From: Candidatus Bathyarchaeia archaeon
GTDB lineage: Archaea; Thermoproteota; Bathyarchaeia; Bathyarchaeales; Bathycorpusculaceae
Assembly (NCBI GenBank): GCA_038728085.1
Contig: JAVYUU010000004.1
Coordinates: forward strand, 20,674 to 84,673
Length of the DNA: 64,000 nt
Direction: 5' to 3'
Both the position numbers and the translations under genes were made by a program. This document shows, piece after piece, positions 2 to 25,911 of the stretch. The notes beneath the pieces are model-generated. The model was not told the origin of the DNA. It searched no databases and was given only the letters and a program-made list of their open reading frames with translations. Position 1 is the stretch's first letter. Every line of letters begins with the position of its first letter.

Positions 2-1652
<1,651 letters not shown>

Positions 1653-2307: not shown

Positions 2308-2868
2308 TCATTTCGACAAAAGTAGGTCTATTAACGCCTTTTGGTCTACCTCCGCCCTTGTCCGCCAGTCCAAGTATAGCTGTTGATTCTCATCTTGGGA
2401 TATATAGCCATACCTTATATAGCGGTCAATGTTTAGGCTTGTCTTCCAACCAGGAAGTTTTTCGCGTAGAAGCTCTTCCACCTCTCTACGGGGCGCCTTG
2501 CCTTTCTTCGATATTATGTAGGCTATTGTTATGGCTAGCCCCGCTAGATCGTCTATTCGCCACCCAATCATCTTAGCCTCTTTTGGCGTTAATTCCCCGC
2601 GAAGGGTTATGTAGAATCTCGCCCTGTCCAGCTCTTCAAGCGTCGGCTTCTCAGACTGCGGCTTTTCACCCTCTTCAAAGACTGTTTTAACTTGGAGGTC
2701 TAGGGGTTTCAAGTATTCGTCTAATATGCTCAGCACTTTCGGGTAATCTGCGCCTAGGGCTTTGCGGAGCTCCCACCCCTTCACTCCAGGCTTTGCATGT
2801 CTACGGTAAAAGAGCATGTGAACAGCGCGTTTGATTTTGCTAGCATAGACGGCTTTCCGCTTGCTCAT
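2308..2868 (-). CDS. ScpB/KITE-like tandem winged-helix protein (third gene of SMC-like operon)
   Basis: LAGLAITIAYIISKKGKAPRREVEELL resembles the ScpB second winged-helix motif (LAIIAYKQPITRAEIEEIRG). A first winged-helix-like segment is GVKGWELRKALGADYPKVLSILDEYLKPLDLQV. The start overlaps the upstream stop by 4 nt. Confidence 0.65.
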   Translation of the reverse strand: MSKRKAVYASKIKRAVHMLFYRRHAKPGVKGWELRKALGADYPKVLSILDEYLKPLDLQVKTVFEEGEKPQSEKPTLEELDRARFYITLRGELTPKEAKMIGWRIDDLAGLAITIAYIISKKGKAPRREVEELLREKLPGWKTSLNIDRYIRYGYISQDENQQLYLDWRTRAEVDQKALIDLLLSK

Positions 2869-3695
2869 TGGGCTTTAACGCTCCTTCTCCATTTCTCCCA
2901 CTCCTCACGGGTTATGGCTATCGGCAGCGAAACCATCTGTTTTTTGGCTGTTCGCCTCTGCTGTCTCTCGAAAGGCTTAATGAATATCTCCTCCTCTAAG
3001 GGGTGAACTTCAAGGGTTGCATATCCATAAGTGACGAGGAAACTAGTCAAAAAGGCTCTATAAACGGTCTCCTCGTAGGTTTCCGCCCCAACAAAATCCC
3101 AATACCTAATTTTGCCATTTTCGCCTCTTTCCGCCACAAGCCTCTTCAACTCGCTCCAAAAGTTCTCTAACTCCTCCGTGAAAGCCTTATCCCGCAAGAT
3201 TTTAAGCCTTAAAAGCTCCTCGCGGGAGGCAACGCCGCCAGCCTCTTCAAGCGGCGGAAACTCTTTCCACCTATCCTTTAAGGGTGGAAGGTTTTCCCAG
3301 TAAAGCAGTGCCTCCTTCAGGCTGTAGAGGGAGATTTGTTCAAGTTCAACTATTGGGTGCCAAGCTCCGAGAAAAGCGTCCACTATGGCTTCTTTATCAA
3401 GGTTCTTTATCTTCTCCTCTAAGAGAAATGGATCTGTATAGAGGGATGTGGAGCGATGCTTAACCCATTCGCTCTGAAGCTTTATAACTGAGGCGAGGCG
3501 GTTTATTGCCTCAGCATCCAAACACAGATCTTCAGGCTGCTCCCAGTCTGGGAAAAACTCCCTCACAACCCTAATGATCTCGTCCACATCTACCAGGAAG
3601 GGGTCAAGACCGCGCTCCTCAACAGCTTTACACATCTCAATTATCCTTTGAAGTCTCTCCCGCCCAACTTTGACGCGTTCCTTCTTCGACTGCAT
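2865..3695 (-). CDS. ScpA-like kleisin (second gene of SMC-like operon)
   Basis: The N-terminal GLDPFLVDVDEIIRVV and the C-terminal winged helix ETVYRAFLTSFLVTYGYATLEVHPLEEEIFIKP resemble ScpA N- and C-terminal domains. The start shares 1 nt with the SMC-like stop (TAATG). Confidence 0.65.
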   Translation of the reverse strand: MQSKKERVKVGRERLQRIIEMCKAVEERGLDPFLVDVDEIIRVVREFFPDWEQPEDLCLDAEAINRLASVIKLQSEWVKHRSTSLYTDPFLLEEKIKNLDKEAIVDAFLGAWHPIVELEQISLYSLKEALLYWENLPPLKDRWKEFPPLEEAGGVASREELLRLKILRDKAFTEELENFWSELKRLVAERGENGKIRYWDFVGAETYEETVYRAFLTSFLVTYGYATLEVHPLEEEIFIKPFERQQRRTAKKQMVSLPIAITREEWEKWRRSVKAQ

Positions 3696-5614
3696 TAGGC
3701 AACCTCTTTAACTATGGATTTTCCCTCAACATTCTGGACTGTGATAACGTGAATGGCATCCTCTGCGAAAGTGATTTGGCTTGGAGTTATAATCACATAC
3801 TGGGCATCTGAACTCTTAACCGTTGAAATCAGCATCTGCGCTATCAACTCGCGGTTTTTCGGATCCATGTGGACGTCAAACTCATCAACAGCGCGGAAAG
3901 GTGAGCGCACATGTTGCTGCAAAGCCAACAAGAAACTCATGGTGGCTGTTGTCCTTTCGCCTCCGCTCTGGGTGTAAGCGTTAAGCGGCACCGGTTTACC
4001 GCCCTTAAAGCCTACAAGAATCTCAAGTCCAGCCGCCTCGATGTCATGCTCATTTACAAGCCTAACTTCGCCGACAGCTTGAACCTGCGCCAAAATCCTC
4101 TGATACTCCAGATTTACACGATCTAGAAGGCTCTGGATCACCGTCCGCCAAGCCTGCATTCGCGTCTTAACCTCTTCCAATGCTTTCTCCCGGTTTTCAG
4201 CCACAAGCCGCGCCTTTTCCTTAAGCTCAAGGTAAAGCTGCGAGTATGACTCATACATGCGCTCGACATCCTCCGAGACACTCGCCAAAGCGGCTAAGTG
4301 CCCATCAGTTATGCGGATTTCATTTAGGATTTCGCCGGCGCTTTTTATGACGGCTATCCTTGGACCTGTTTCCTCAGCCCTCTTAATGGCATTGTTAAGC
4401 TGAAACCTTGCATCTTTAAGTGCCGCCTTCAACTCTTCAATGTTCGCCTTTGCGTTTTCCATTCTGTAATTTAGCAGTGCAAGTTTAACCCGTGTATCTA
4501 TGATTTGACTTCTAGCCTTCTCTATTTGCTCTTCAAGAATCTGGGTTTCCAATAATTTCCTGTTCAATTCCTCGTCCAGCTTGGAAACTTTTAGCCTCGA
4601 ATTTTCCATAAGCTCTTTTAGGCTTTCAGTTCTCAAAAGTTTCAAGGGTTTACCGCTGATAGCCTCGTTCTCTATGAGGGCTGCTTCAGCCACAAGCTGT
4701 TCACAAAGCGAGAGTGCAGCTTGGCTTCCGGCCTTCTCCCGTTCTAGGCTTATCACGCTTTCCAGATTTTTCTTCCATTCACTTTTCAACTTTTCAATCT
4801 GGTTTTGCTGAATTTGAAGTTGCTCCTCAGCTGTTTTGGCTTCTGTCTCGATTTGTCTTAACAACGCCAACTCTTTTTCACGTTTGGCTTCCAACTCTTC
4901 TACGATGGCTTCACGGCGGTTCACTTCAGCCCATGCAAGCTCCCGCTCTAGAAAGCGTCTTTTCGCCATCAGCTGCTTCTTTTCTTGGAATCTCTCGTAT
5001 TGCTCCCGCCAGTAGTTGAGCGTTTGCTCCGCCGACTCCAAAAGCTTGTTTATAGACTCTTCTTGGCTCAGTATACAGGTAAGCTTCCTCTGGGCTTCAA
5101 GCACGTTTTCACGGTAAGCCTCAAGCCCAACCGCTGCCTCCACCATGCGGAGCTTTTCCTGAGGCGAAAGAATCGTGAACTGCTCCACCATGTTCTGGTG
5201 CATGATAATCAACATGTTGTCGGGGTCAACGCCAAGCTTAGCCAGAAGCCTCTCTACATCCTGCTTTGAAGCCGCCCGGTTTTCAAGCTCAAACCAATAC
5301 TTGCCATCCCGCCTCAAAACCCGAGTCAGAAAAATCTGGTCCTTGTTAAACTTTGGAACTGGACGTTTACCGCCCCGCCTAGAATTATCCAGTATAAGCG
5401 TCACACGTGCCTGATCCTTACCCCAACGGATCAAGTCGCTAAGCTTTCTAGAGCGCTCCGTGTAGGATTGGCCCAGAGCCACAGAAATAGCCAGTAAAAG
5501 CGAGGACTTTCCAGCGCCATTGGGGCCACAGACAACGTTTACGCCGGGTTTAAAGGGTACTCTAGCATATTCGTAGCTCATGAAATTTTCGAGGATCACC
5601 TCGCTGATGAGCAC
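3695..5614 (-). CDS. SMC-family ABC ATPase, half-size (639 aa), short coiled coil, no recognisable hinge or zinc hook
   Basis: Walker A is GPNGAGKSS, the signature motif is QSGGERT, and the Walker B/D-loop is AVDEFDVHMD. About 330 aa of Glu/Lys/Leu heptad-rich sequence lies between the head halves. Confidence 0.85.
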   Translation of the reverse strand: MLISEVILENFMSYEYARVPFKPGVNVVCGPNGAGKSSLLLAISVALGQSYTERSRKLSDLIRWGKDQARVTLILDNSRRGGKRPVPKFNKDQIFLTRVLRRDGKYWFELENRAASKQDVERLLAKLGVDPDNMLIIMHQNMVEQFTILSPQEKLRMVEAAVGLEAYRENVLEAQRKLTCILSQEESINKLLESAEQTLNYWREQYERFQEKKQLMAKRRFLERELAWAEVNRREAIVEELEAKREKELALLRQIETEAKTAEEQLQIQQNQIEKLKSEWKKNLESVISLEREKAGSQAALSLCEQLVAEAALIENEAISGKPLKLLRTESLKELMENSRLKVSKLDEELNRKLLETQILEEQIEKARSQIIDTRVKLALLNYRMENAKANIEELKAALKDARFQLNNAIKRAEETGPRIAVIKSAGEILNEIRITDGHLAALASVSEDVERMYESYSQLYLELKEKARLVAENREKALEEVKTRMQAWRTVIQSLLDRVNLEYQRILAQVQAVGEVRLVNEHDIEAAGLEILVGFKGGKPVPLNAYTQSGGERTTATMSFLLALQQHVRSPFRAVDEFDVHMDPKNRELIAQMLISTVKSSDAQYVIITPSQITFAEDAIHVITVQNVEGKSIVKEVA

Positions 5615-5770: not shown

Positions 5771-6847
5771 TTACCGCAGTTTTATTGGTCCTATGCGTTT
5801 TTCGCTTCGTCTTAAGAACGCGCTTTCCACGCCGGTTACAACGGCCATGACGGAGACGCTTCCATGCATTTCCTTGTCAACTCTTGCACCCCAAATCACC
5901 TTTGCCTTCGGTGGCAGCGAGCGCTTCACGATTTCAGCTGCATGGTTAACCTCGAAAAGAGTTAAGTCTTCGCCGCCGGAAACATGTATGAGCAAACCGC
6001 GGGCCTTAGTCACGTCCTCTATGTCCAGGAGGCGTCCATTTATCGCCTTTTCAACAGCCTGCTCCACTTGGCGGTGCAGGATCAAACATAATAACGTGGA
6101 TCAAGGAAAAGGGGATTGTCGGAGCAAAACTTGTGGCGGTTAACACCGACGCCAACCACCTTAGAATAACGAAGGCTGACAGGAGAATTTTGATAGGTGC
6201 AAACCTCACGAAGGGCTTGGGCTGCGGCGGCTACCCAGAGCTTGGAGCGAGAGCCCTCCTTGAAAGCGCCGACAAGGTAATCCAAGAAATAGCCGACGCC
6301 AACATAATATTCCTAGTTGCCGGGTTGGGCGGCGGGACAGGAACAGGTGCAATAACAGCCCTATCAGAGGAGTTGCGCAGAAGATTTGCAGAGTCGCCGG
6401 TTCCACGCCTTGTCATTGGGGTGGTTACCCTCCCCTTTGAGGTTGAAACCGCTAGGATGGAGATAGCCAAGAAGGGATTGGATCGGCTGAAGAAGTCATG
6501 CGATACAGTCGTTGTGATCGACAACAATAGGCTTGTTAAGATTGCCGGAAACCTGCCGTTTAAGGAGGCCTTAGGTGTTGCAAACACGACTATTGGAAAA
6601 TTCATTAAAGGCATAACAGAGACCATTACCACGGCAAGCCTAATCAACCTAGACTATGCAGACCTAAGAGCCATAATGCAAGGCGCGGGCCTCGCCTCGA
6701 TAGGCGTCGGCGAGGGCACGGGAGAAGGTCGAGGCCTACAGCCATTATCGATGGTTGGGCGAGTCTTGCAAACTGTTCGATTTCTTCCTCTTTTACGTAG
6801 GTGGAGGATGGTACTTCGGAGGGGGTGACTGTTAGCTCGGCTTTCAC
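5771..6847 (-). pseudogene. ftsZ: cell division GTPase FtsZ, disrupted by internal inversion of 6067..6733
   Basis: The N-terminus (MKAELTV...QPSIMAVG) is on the minus strand at 6847..6734. The core (LGGAGSN...GGGTGTG...NLDYADLRAIM...GEGR) is on the plus strand at 6067..6733. The C-terminal domain (VEQAVEKAINGRLLD...GGEDLTLFEV...) is on the minus strand at 6066..5771. The piece lengths 114+667+296 sum to 1077 nt, which is in frame after re-inversion. Confidence 0.9.
6067..6733 (+). other. inverted segment carrying FtsZ codons ~39-260
   Basis: The plus-strand frame reads ...LGGAGSNIITWIKEKGIVGAKLVAVNTDANHL...GVGEGTGEGR. FtsZ homology stops abruptly at both ends. Only a 2-bp complementary microhomology (CT..AG) lies at the breakpoints, so the boundary is ambiguous between 6067-6069 and 6731-6733. 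Confidence 0.85.
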
Positions 6848-23715: not shown

Positions 23716-23843
23716 TTCAGTTCACCTTCCCGCTTGAACAGTATGATAATCCGGCTCTGAATTTTAAGCTTTGGCAAGCGTAAAGTTTAAGGCTTGCACC
23801 ATGCTAGAGTTCGAATACCCCAGTTCATACAAGAGGTTTAAAG

Positions 23844-24398
23844 TTGAGCGAGGAAGAGGAAACCCTAGAGGAACGTAAGGCGAAAATCCTGATCAAGCTA
23901 AGAGGCTACAAGCTAATCAAAAAGGAGAAAGAGAAAAACATTGCAAGCTACATCGTCGAAGACCCAAAGGAAGGAGAGAAAAAGCAGATCCTAATCTGGT
24001 GCGTTCCAGACGAAACAGTAGGCATACAAACCATAAACCGCATGGCAAAAGCCATGAAAGAAGCCCAAATAGAACACGGAATCCTCATAGCAAGCGGCCG
24101 CTACACCAACGCCGCCAAACAAACCGCAAAGAAAAAACACATAGAACTTCTACCTAAAACCTTTCCCGTATTCGACATATTCGAGCACGTGCTCGTGCCA
24201 AAACACGAAATCCTAACCCCCGAAGAACGCGAGAAAGTCCTAGCCCAATACCGTGTTAAGCCATACCAGCTACCCCAAATAAAAGCCTCAGACCCAGCAG
24301 CCAAAGCCATAGGCGCAAAACCCGGCGACATAATACGCATAATCCGCAAAAGCCCTACAGCCGGCGAGCACATAGCCTACAGATATGTCGTAGAATAA
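23844..24398 (+). CDS. rpoH: RNA polymerase subunit H (Rpo5) with long N-terminal Rpb5-jaw-like extension
   Basis: The C-terminal [69 protein letters not shown] is canonical RpoH. About 110 extra residues lie upstream in the same ORF. Confidence 0.85.
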
Positions 24399-24470: not shown

Positions 24471-24806
24471 TCATGTACTCATGCCTAGAACTTTGTTTAG
24501 GCGTTTCTCCGCGTTTCTATACCTTCTAAGAATGTCCTTTCCAAGTTTTGTGAGTCTTGCCCCTCCCCCACCAGCCCTCCCGCCTCGATGGGTCTCAACT
24601 ATGGGTTTGCCTAGCGCTTTCTCCACCCTCTTTACATAGCTCCATACATAGCGGTATGACATGCCGAGTTTTTTGGCAGCTTTAGAGATGGACTGTTCCT
24701 TTTCTATTTGTTCTAGGATTTGGGCCCCATCCTTGCCTATCAATGGTTTCCCGTCGTATTCAAGCCAAATCTTGCATGAGAGTTTCGTCTTAGGTTTTGT
24801 TGACAT
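24471..24806 (-). CDS. ModE N-terminal-type winged-helix regulator (no TOBE/Mop domain)
   Basis: GAQILEQIEKEQSISKAAKKLGMSYRYVWSYVKRVEKALGKPIVETHRGGRAGGGGARLTKLG matches the ModE/LysR-type N-domain. The start is taken at the internal ATG 24806 (MSTKPKTK...). Confidence 0.7.
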   Translation of the reverse strand: MSTKPKTKLSCKIWLEYDGKPLIGKDGAQILEQIEKEQSISKAAKKLGMSYRYVWSYVKRVEKALGKPIVETHRGGRAGGGGARLTKLGKDILRRYRNAEKRLNKVLGMST

Positions 24807-24998
24807 TCTGTTACTTTTTTGCGCGTTATTTTTATAAGAGTATTCGATATGAATAGCAAAGCACAACGAGGAGGCTAGATTATAAAGATAAATAGGTCTT
24901 TAGCAACAGGCAAGGTTCCAGTTGCTTTTCTCTTTGGTTTTATTCTCGGAGTTGCTGCTGGGCTGATAGGTGTTGGTGGAGGGGAGTTTAGGATACCC

Positions 24999-25682
24999 GT
25001 GCTGCTTCATGTTGTTGGCCTTCCCATTGTGGCGGCTATAGCTGTTAATTTGCTTGTGGGCTTGTTAACGGTGGTTGTTTCTTTTATGAGGCGCTTTCAA
25101 TTAGGCTTGCTAAATGGGCACAGTGTAAACATCGCATTAACCATGTCGGCAACATCAATTATCGGCGCTTATTTGGGTGCGCTTTTGACTGATAGGATTC
25201 CGGAAAAACCGTTAAAGCGGCTTTTAGCAGTTTTCCTTGTGGTTGTTGGCTTAAAAATCGGACTTGAACCATTTATCGAAACTCCATTAACACTGGCCTT
25301 CACGTTGGGTTTTGTGGAAGAAGCCCTACTCGCTGCGTTAATTGGTTTGGCGATAGGGGTGATATCCGGAGCCCTTGGAGTTGCAGGCGGCGAATTCCGC
25401 ATTCCAGCATTAATCTACGTTTTTGGCCTTGACATCGTGGCGGCTGGAACGGCAAGCCTTCTCGTTTCTATTCCAACGGTTGCCTCGGGTTTTCTGAAAC
25501 ATCATAATATGGGGCACATGAACCGGGAGGCTGCTCTTATCGCGGCTGTTATGGGGGCTGGTTCAGTTATCGGCGCTCTCATTGGGGCTTCTTATGCTGG
25601 CTTTGTGGAGAAAGACGTCCTTAAAGTGTTACTTGGCGTGACTCTTGTTTTGGCAACTGTGCGAATGGTCACTGAGCCTTAG
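24999..25682 (+). CDS. TauE/SafE (TSUP) family anion exporter; conserved N-terminus extends upstream of the first canonical start
   Basis: This is a multi-TM protein with two GxGGGxxxxP-type repeats (GVAGGEFRIPALIYV internally). A further GLIGVGGGEFRIPVLL is encoded in frame upstream of GTG 24999, in a frame open from 24879. Confidence 0.75.
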   Translation: MLLHVVGLPIVAAIAVNLLVGLLTVVVSFMRRFQLGLLNGHSVNIALTMSATSIIGAYLGALLTDRIPEKPLKRLLAVFLVVVGLKIGLEPFIETPLTLAFTLGFVEEALLAALIGLAIGVISGALGVAGGEFRIPALIYVFGLDIVAAGTASLLVSIPTVASGFLKHHNMGHMNREAALIAAVMGAGSVIGALIGASYAGFVEKDVLKVLLGVTLVLATVRMVTEP

Positions 25683-25911
25683 TTTTTGCCTCATTTTTTA
25701 GTTCGTGGAGGATAACTAGGGCTTCGCCTAATGGGATGCCAAGTTTGGATGCTAGTTCTTGGGGTGTTATGTCAGGCTTTTCATGGAGTATTACATCTCT
25801 TGTGTAGGCTTTATGGTGGGGATACATTACCATGGCGTGAACTGTTTCCACCAGAATCGGCCAGAGCTTCTCTTTTACATATTCTTCGAGGCTCATGGCT
25901 ATCAGAAACAA
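25669..25911 (-). CDS. hypothetical small protein, possible HTH
   Basis: The 80-aa ORF has an HTH-like segment (ITPQELASKLGIPLGEALVILHEL). Confidence 0.4.
   Translation of the reverse strand: MFLIAMSLEEYVKEKLWPILVETVHAMVMYPHHKAYTRDVILHEKPDITPQELASKLGIPLGEALVILHELKNEAKTKAQ

Follow-up and report, generated by a model that had tools for sequence, protein, structure and literature searches.

The subunit Rpb5 (RPABC1) is common to the RNA polymerases (Pol) I, II and III of eukaryotes. It consists of two domains, an N-terminal module that has the fold of PD-(D/E)xK nucleases with a dead active site and a C-terminal globe (Rpb5_C), which follow each other in this order in both the yeast (1dzf) and the human (28jc_E) protein. 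The C-terminal globe, in Rpb5 as in archaeal RpoH, binds two elements of the largest subunit, and the N-module of eukaryotic Rpb5 is reported to bind TFIIB. In archaea the canonical subunit, RpoH or Rpo5, is a protein of only 75-85 amino acids (aa), and its gene commonly, if not universally, stands at the head of an rpoH-rpoB-rpoA operon. The N-module has been described as eukaryote-only and archaeal RpoH as lacking an N-terminal extension (PMC1802627; PMC3906176); a 2012 survey of the PD-(D/E)xK proteins assigns Rpb5_N to 'Eukaryota' only (PMC3424549), and the archaeal small RNA polymerase (RNAP) subunits treated in a 2026 paper are Rpo6 and Rpo8 only. Here, we describe an rpoH gene of 184 codons in a 64,000-nucleotide stretch, called the window below, of contig JAVYUU010000004.1 from Candidatus Bathyarchaeia archaeon (assembly GCA_038728085.1). 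With a probability of about three in four, its product is a two-domain Rpo5 (RpoH) subunit of the Bathyarchaeon RNAP, the N-terminal domain of which is a nuclease-dead Mrr-type domain homologous to the core of the Rpb5 N-module. No description of a two-domain archaeal Rpo5 was found in the full-text literature, with subscription journals outside its coverage, or in the supplements of Eme et al. (2023); the long archaeal RpoH may be a variant previously undescribed in the literature searched, with an earlier mention being possible.

The gene and its parts are as follows:

23844..24398, + strand: long rpoH/rpo5 gene, 184 codons plus stop, TTG start (open reading frame listing, Pfam and NCBIfam matches)
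23832..23837, + strand: Shine-Dalgarno-like AGAGGT, 6 nt 5′ of the TTG start (read from the sequence)
23844..24167, + strand: N-terminal domain, residues 1-108 (AF2, Foldseek, profile versus PDB, hhalign, joint alignment, dN/dS)
24168..24398, + strand: C-terminal RpoH/Rpb5_C domain, residues 109-184, and stop codon (PF01191, NF007129)

The open reading frame (ORF) is present exactly as it had been noted from the DNA letters alone (the original prediction), uninterrupted from its TTG start, and the extension of some 110 residues that was then proposed to lie ahead of the canonical domain amounts to about 108 in-frame residues preceding Rpb5_C. The C-terminal part has the hallmarks of an archaeal RpoH: Pfam RNA_pol_Rpb5_C (PF01191) matches residues 110-182 over 73/73 model positions (E = 7e-33), the NCBIfam RpoH equivalog NF007129 is matched with 115.7 bits (cut-off 83), and the last 75 residues are 56-65 % identical to canonical archaeal RpoH/Rpo5 proteins (4qiw_H, 8cro_H, 2pmz_H), with a template modeling (TM) score of 0.8. 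For solved archaeal Rpo5 chains, the identity of the C-domain is 62-65 %. What distinguishes the long form from these canonical proteins is the additional 108-residue N-terminal domain.

Three comparisons of this N-domain, a profile search of the PDB, hhalign and Foldseek, were made without any C-domain residue, and eukaryotic Rpb5 was the best match in the PDB in both sequence and structure. An N-domain profile (alignment A1) was searched against 177,635 PDB sequences: the top seven matches were eukaryotic Rpb5 (E = 2.9e-5 to 2.7e-3), the matched stretch being residues ~57-117 of Rpb5, and no restriction enzyme was found among the matches at E <= 10. When a diverse alignment of archaeal N-domains was compared by hhalign with six eukaryotic N-modules, of which the human and yeast ones were verified against the PDB, a probability of 96.7 % was obtained (E = 3.6e-10, score 59) over 96 columns that include helix α1. 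The likeness to the Rpb5 N-domain, first proposed by eye, is thus significant at the profile level. The yeast segment that had been quoted for this purpose proved to be exact (yeast Rpb5 residues 78-135, compared with 1dzf_A), and the register set by eye, with VPDETVG on CDEPSVG, is that given by HMMER and MAFFT. In a phmmer search of the PDB, residues 45-183 of the window protein are collinear with residues 63-205 of Arabidopsis NRPB5A.

The N-domain alone was predicted by AlphaFold2 (AF2) with a mean local confidence (pLDDT) of 92 and a predicted TM score (pTM) of 0.86. It has the topology α-β-β-β-α-β-α-β (H7-18, E22-29, E32-39, E46-53, H60-72, E77-82, H88-96, E99-102), along which the motifs LRGY (19-22), the VG turn (59-60), the T-x-x-A helix (88-91) and IELLPKTFP (100-108) are arranged. 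Superposition of this model, which the original prediction had proposed as a check, put Rpb5 first in Foldseek (E = 6e-5; query TM score, TMq, 0.57-0.59; root-mean-square deviation, RMSD, 1.7-2.8 Å; 77-80 columns); MspJI, AspBHI and AF1548 (1y88) are interleaved with Rpb5 in the ranking and fit more loosely (RMSD 4.3-5 Å). Superposition of the full-length model on Rpb5 was uninformative (TM ~0.4, RMSD ~17 Å) because the orientation at the hinge is not predicted (pTM 0.57), and the comparison was redone for each domain. When 1.84 billion representatives were searched exhaustively with this profile of the N-domain, only 102 matches were obtained, in four groups, namely divergent long RpoH, eukaryote-type Rpb5, active Mrr nucleases and a family in which the N-domain is joined to a Cys-rich C-terminus; the eukaryote-type Rpb5 proteins P0186, P0209, P0215 and P0221 were retrieved at E = 8e-5 to 9e-4.

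The N-domain is also related to Mrr-type nucleases. It shares the PD-(D/E)xK fold and strong profile similarity with the Mrr_cat and NA-iREase1 domains, and it matches both families above the gathering score (NA-iREase1, PF22722, E = 3e-10; Mrr_cat, PF04471, E = 1e-9). The archaeal, eukaryotic and Mrr groups have three elements in common: a turn with VG(I/V), a strand with G-I-(L/I)-V and a helix with T-x-x-A. Unlike Mrr domains, however, the archaeal N-domain lacks the catalytic lysine and is fused to an RNAP subunit. Active Mrr domains follow the pattern G-x-D ... E-K ... Q-C-K, whereas the window protein has A-S-Y at the position of G-x-D and W-C-V at that of Q-C-K; the region of the lysine reads I-W-C-V-P in the window protein, V-F-F-P-E in human and V-E-F-C-D in yeast Rpb5. 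In the joint alignment the lysine is gone from 23/23 archaeal and 6/6 eukaryotic sequences, and in the Bathyarchaeial family the aspartate of G-x-D is lost as well. Judged from these residues, the N-domain is a putatively nuclease-dead Mrr-type PD-(D/E)xK domain.

The likeness to Rpb5 extends to details of the junction and of conserved motifs. The last strand of the N-domain is separated from H-x-LVP-x-H by 15 residues in the window protein and by 16 in human Rpb5. Helix α1 ends in RGY, the Arg of which does not vary among the 27 long and eukaryote-type sequences or among the 23 archaeal N-domains, while it is found in 6/16 Mrr sequences; the preceding Asp is not conserved, the window protein reading L-R-G-Y. 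In yeast, the R26E change in what has been called the 'invariant DRGY motif' is lethal, and the last 12 residues of the N-module constitute the other conserved block (PMC1802627). The archaeal counterpart of this block, IELLPKTFP, is nearly invariant. There are also differences from the eukaryotic module: the archaeal N-domain is ~30 residues shorter, at an identity of ~15-22 %, and has a β1-β2 hairpin where the eukaryotic module carries a helical insertion of ~25-30 residues after α1, which appears as a gap in hhalign and MAFFT. The Bathyarchaeial N-domain is basic (isoelectric point, pI, 9.3; net charge +5; helices α1 and α3 +3 each), in contrast to the acidic human and yeast N-modules (pI ~5). 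Two-domain Rpb5 homologues of nucleocytoplasmic large DNA viruses, represented by D205R of African swine fever virus (ASFV; 8q3b_E), are among the Foldseek matches of the full-length model as well as of the N-domain model; the match of the N-domain with ASFV D205R is far weaker (E = 2.6e-2, RMSD 4.6 Å).

How widely is the long form distributed? Among the GTDB species-representative genomes scanned, the best 80 of at least 554 relatives were taken, which are Bathyarchaeia only, short paralogues and other phyla lying beyond the reach of this sample. They come from 80 different Bathyarchaeia metagenome-assembled genomes (MAGs), and the full-length form is present in 80/80. At least 120 clusters of proteins 181-198 aa long have the long architecture in common, at 70-94 % identity, and in them the acidic start and the LEERKAK helix are kept. 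A search with divergent N-domains only (A5) found two-domain proteins of 188-196 aa in Asgard MAGs as well, which are named in NCBI as Candidatus Heimdallarchaeota archaeon (P0297), Candidatus Kariarchaeaceae archaeon (P0245) and 'Asgard group archaeon' (P0272, P0287); Kariarchaeaceae is placed within the kingdom Promethearchaeati (= Asgard). The Asgard long rpoH is a stand-alone gene. Asgard archaea are the closest archaeal relatives of eukaryotes.

Some further relatives were observed in these searches. In a divergent lineage (P0154, L087-L089), the long rpoH lies tail-to-tail with the gene for TFB (TFIIB), beside those for Gar1, SRP19 and S8e, an adjacency that may or may not be meaningful. 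In P0188, an RpoH-like protein of 481 aa, the Rpb5_C globe is preceded by two or three tandem N-domains, and the protein also has a lysine-rich tail. P0186 and P0215 (loci L090-L092) are compact Rpb5-like proteins of 191 aa with a weak match to Pfam Rpb5_N and without the long eukaryotic insertion; the contigs that carry their genes are short and densely packed, with gene ends that overlap, and may derive from a giant virus, from an unusual eukaryote or from an archaeon. In P0156, P0170, P0184, P0189, P0190 and P0201, the same inactivated Mrr/Rpb5_N-like N-domain is fused to a Cys-rich C-terminal module (NLCxxKCGxIPK...C...ISDNADFH) without a Pfam match, and the N-terminus of P0156 shows a weak zinc ribbon of the TFIIB type.

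Unlike a canonical rpoH, the long gene does not head the rpoH-rpoB-rpoA operon. It had been predicted to stand alone, about 22 kb from rpoA, and the 3′ end of rpoA, followed by the genes for L30e and NusA, is indeed found at the beginning of the window:

29..1324, + strand: rpoA (Rpo1) 3′ part, unsplit gene (Pfam Rpb1_5)
1321-1656, + strand: L30e (Pfam L7Ae)
1653-2090, + strand: nusA (Pfam KH/NusA)

The rest of the operon can be read in six contigs (L001-L006) that are 99.7-99.98 % identical to the window, of which L006 is contig JAWAJR010000005.1 of GCA_038887875.1. There the complete operon consists of a YdjM-family gene, rpoB (1123 aa), an unsplit rpoA (1273 aa), L30e and nusA; the operon is headed by the YdjM-family gene, and no short rpoH, for which the original prediction had suggested looking, lies 5′ of rpoB. 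A tblastn search of the window and L001-L006 with the C-domain and with Thermococcus- and Sulfolobus-type fragments found no second rpoH: the 64-kb window has one Rpb5_C-encoding copy, and the 10 kb 5′ of L30e in the near-identical contigs has none. Across the best 80 Bathyarchaeia loci there is likewise a single copy per locus, and rpoB and rpoA are absent within 6 kb of rpoH in all of them. The long rpoH is apart from the rpoB-rpoA operon in every lineage examined, the Asgard loci included.

The long rpoH of the window is situated about 22 kb downstream of this operon, between TldD/PmbA peptidase genes and a helix-turn-helix (HTH) regulator gene, with TauE also among its neighbours. The gene for the regulator (HTH_1-type, 131 aa; window 24471-24866, - strand) is within 6 kb of the long rpoH in 53/80 of the best Bathyarchaeia loci, and an unannotated ORF of 80 aa (window 25669-25911, - strand) in 57/80; the two constitute a conserved neighbourhood. 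Splitting of rpoA into A′ and A′′ is common in archaea. Rpo1 of this uncultured Bathyarchaeon is encoded by one unsplit gene of 1273 aa with Rpb1 domains 1-5 (L001 6183-10004), as in eukaryotes. Long forms of Rpo6 have been reported for Bathyarchaeota (PMC13257274). The unsplit Rpo1, the long Rpo5 and the long Rpo6 together suggest a cluster of eukaryote-like RNAP traits.

Could the extension be an artefact of annotation or assembly, with the real start near HVLVPKH and the frame 5′ of it open by chance, or with two genes wrongly joined? TTG is a rare start codon, and NCBI calls of some orthologues in Asgard and Bathyarchaeia begin at an internal Met, so that the N-domain is shortened or removed (P0316 and P0318, 145-146 aa; P0239, 91 aa). 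However, comparison with 35 orthologues (dS ~1; ~1.3 for the N-part) gave a median ratio of nonsynonymous to synonymous substitutions (dN/dS) of 0.083 in the N-terminal and 0.052 in the C-terminal part, a TTG is aligned with the window start in 49/53 orthologous loci and preceded here by the Shine-Dalgarno-like motif, and the domain is predicted to fold with high confidence in an architecture that recurs on hundreds of independent contigs. The N-domain of the long form is functional and under purifying selection, and the start just before HVLVPKH, considered in the original prediction, is not the real one; the artefact, which we regard as scarcely credible, was rejected on the dN/dS. The conserved TTG start has probably led to systematic mis-annotation hiding the long architecture in databases, in which several entries consist of the C-domain only because the start is TTG or because an internal Met was picked. 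Another possibility is that the N-domain still acts as an Mrr-like nuclease, which the polymerase would carry along for example for defence or DNA processing. The PD-(D/E)xK core is complete in the predicted fold and Mrr_cat is matched with 38.8 bits against a gathering score of 21, but the lysine of Q-x-K is replaced in the window protein as well as throughout the 23 archaeal sequences aligned, the Bathyarchaeial family lacks the aspartate too, and the best Pfam match is the 'inactive restriction endonuclease' family. This activity was rejected on the catalytic residues and is very improbable.

Several points weigh against a two-domain polymerase subunit that shares its origin with Rpb5. The copy-number search covered ~74 kb of this genome, which leaves room for a second, short rpoH elsewhere; the inter-domain orientation in the full-length model is uncertain (pTM 0.57); the surface function may differ, since the eukaryotic module has an insertion and an acidic surface while the domain here is basic; RNA_pol_Rpb5_N (PF03871) does not match the window protein even at E <= 10; hhalign scores the archaeal N-domain higher against Mrr domains (99.4 %, E = 4.4e-21, score 114, 96 columns) than against Rpb5_N; the N-domains of Bathyarchaeia have a median of 24 bits with a eukaryotic N-module hidden Markov model (HMM) and of 70 bits with an Mrr HMM; and the patchy distribution among lineages makes horizontal transfer or convergence possible. 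With respect to copy number, the long protein might be a paralogue outside the polymerase core, such as a regulator or decoy with an Rpb5_C globe, while a short RpoH is encoded elsewhere. Its detachment from the rpoB-rpoA operon in every lineage examined would agree with this, and an Rpo5 accession that the 2026 paper gives for Bathyarchaeota is two numbers from that of Rpo1, hinting that some members keep rpoH in the operon. Against it, the C-domain is as conserved as that of a bona fide Rpo5 (dN/dS 0.052, equivalog-level score), no second copy was found in the window, in the 10 kb 5′ of L30e or in the best 80 loci, the operon is headed by the YdjM-family gene and not by rpoH, and 80/80 of the best species matches are the long form; we consider such a paralogue quite improbable. 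As for the origin, an Mrr-type domain might have been joined to RpoH separately in archaea (perhaps repeatedly or by transfer) and in the eukaryotic stem, in which case the likeness to Rpb5_N would reflect mere membership of the Mrr superfamily. This convergent fusion, which is unlikely in our estimation, would account for the closer scores with Mrr, for the Pfam matches to Mrr_cat and NA-iREase1 instead of PF03871 and for the patchy occurrence in Bathyarchaeia, some Asgard lineages and others; the N-domain is also a mobile module, as it is found on the unrelated Cys-rich C-terminus in another family. The original prediction had named a Pfam search as a check and a fused unrelated Mrr-like domain as the contrary outcome; RNA_pol_Rpb5_N gave no match and the Mrr families did, yet the domain did not turn out to be unrelated to Rpb5. 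The PF03871 model is 89 positions long and reaches approximately to the VG motif, covering mainly α1 and the eukaryotic helical insertion without the conserved second half of the fold, and genuine eukaryotic Rpb5 proteins (P0209, P0221) themselves match NA-iREase1 and Mrr_cat through residues 59-130. For these two reasons the conclusion that the protein is 'just an Mrr fusion', drawn from the missing PF03871 match, was rejected. Other archaeal long forms reach PF03871 weakly, below the gathering score (P0175, 2.7e-3; P0187, 5.3e-3), and the hhalign score with Mrr is inflated because the Mrr sequences had been selected for their likeness to the archaeal profile. Convergence is further opposed by what the archaeal and eukaryotic proteins have in common, namely the order of the domains, a junction length that agrees to within one residue, the loss of the lysine and the invariant Arg of RGY, and by the N-only profile, which retrieves Rpb5 and no restriction enzyme in the PDB. 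Moreover, eukaryotic Rpb5_N aligns over 96 columns with the archaeal domain but over 41 with Mrr domains (92.6 %, E = 4.5e-7, score 43). The gap between the scores with the eukaryotic and Mrr HMMs narrows in the Kari-type (188 aa; median 25 versus 48 bits) and Heimdall-type (195 aa; median 19 versus 25 bits) forms, and a single sequence, P0187, has 40 bits with the eukaryotic and 29 with the Mrr HMM; the presence in Heimdallarchaeota fits vertical descent. Since it misses PF03871 and scores closer to Mrr, the archaeal N-domain looks like an intermediate between Mrr and Rpb5_N, and it is best regarded as a homologue, and plausibly a precursor-like form, of the Rpb5 N-module rather than a typical member. 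With these two qualifications, one concerning Pfam and the other the missing insertion and the Mrr kinship, the interpretation of the gene as a full-length Rpb5-like subunit with an Rpb5-like N-domain, encoded away from rpoB and rpoA, is supported. We give about even odds to the wider proposal that the Rpb5 jaw is not a eukaryotic invention and that an Mrr-type domain was joined to RpoH and lost its activity in Archaea, the fusion persisting in Bathyarchaeia and in Heimdall-, Kari- and other Asgard lineages and being inherited by eukaryotes through an Asgard-related ancestor, with the insertion and the acidic surface acquired later.

How would the two-domain Rpo5 work in the polymerase? The C-terminal globe would dock on Rpo1, as in all archaeal and eukaryotic polymerases. 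Because the junction and the fold are conserved, the archaeal N-domain is most likely at the position equivalent to that of the Rpb5 N-module, so placed, it would make the lower jaw longer and could touch downstream DNA, provide a docking surface for factors or do both, the two roles being equally possible; a contact with downstream DNA is plausible as helices α1 and α3 are basic. An archaeal lineage-specific addition beside Rpo5 that contacts downstream double-stranded DNA is known in Rpo13 (PMC13257274, PMC7289017). Rpo13 of Sulfolobales is a separate and unrelated small helical subunit, and it is a functional analogue only, to which the predicted role of the N-domain would be similar.

Two other groups of genes in the window may be mentioned. 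A small gene encoding FtsZ_C only (98-104 aa; window 5771-6085, - strand) is divergent to a neighbour that encodes a 231-aa protein with the tubulin/FtsZ GTPase domain only (window 6133-6828, + strand); according to Pfam calls made on L001, they are an unusual split of FtsZ parts in a divergent arrangement. Three genes at window 2308-5614 (- strand) encode an SMC_N/AAA ATPase of 639 aa, a protein of 276 aa that matches Nse4_C weakly (kleisin-like; E = 1.9e-4) and a protein of 186 aa without a Pfam match, and their products possibly form an SMC-like complex.

If the long RpoH is a polymerase subunit and has a single origin with eukaryotic Rpb5, another eukaryote-like trait of transcription would move back to the Archaea (Asgard, TACK). 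The jaw module would then have originated from a domesticated, inactivated Mrr-type restriction nuclease, and its role, either contact with downstream DNA or docking of factors, could be studied in a simpler system. If it was inherited through Asgard archaea, the long RpoH would be a living intermediate for how a subunit shared by Pol I, II and III gained a domain for docking transcription factors, and Rpb5_N would join the eukaryotic signature features that have archaeal roots.

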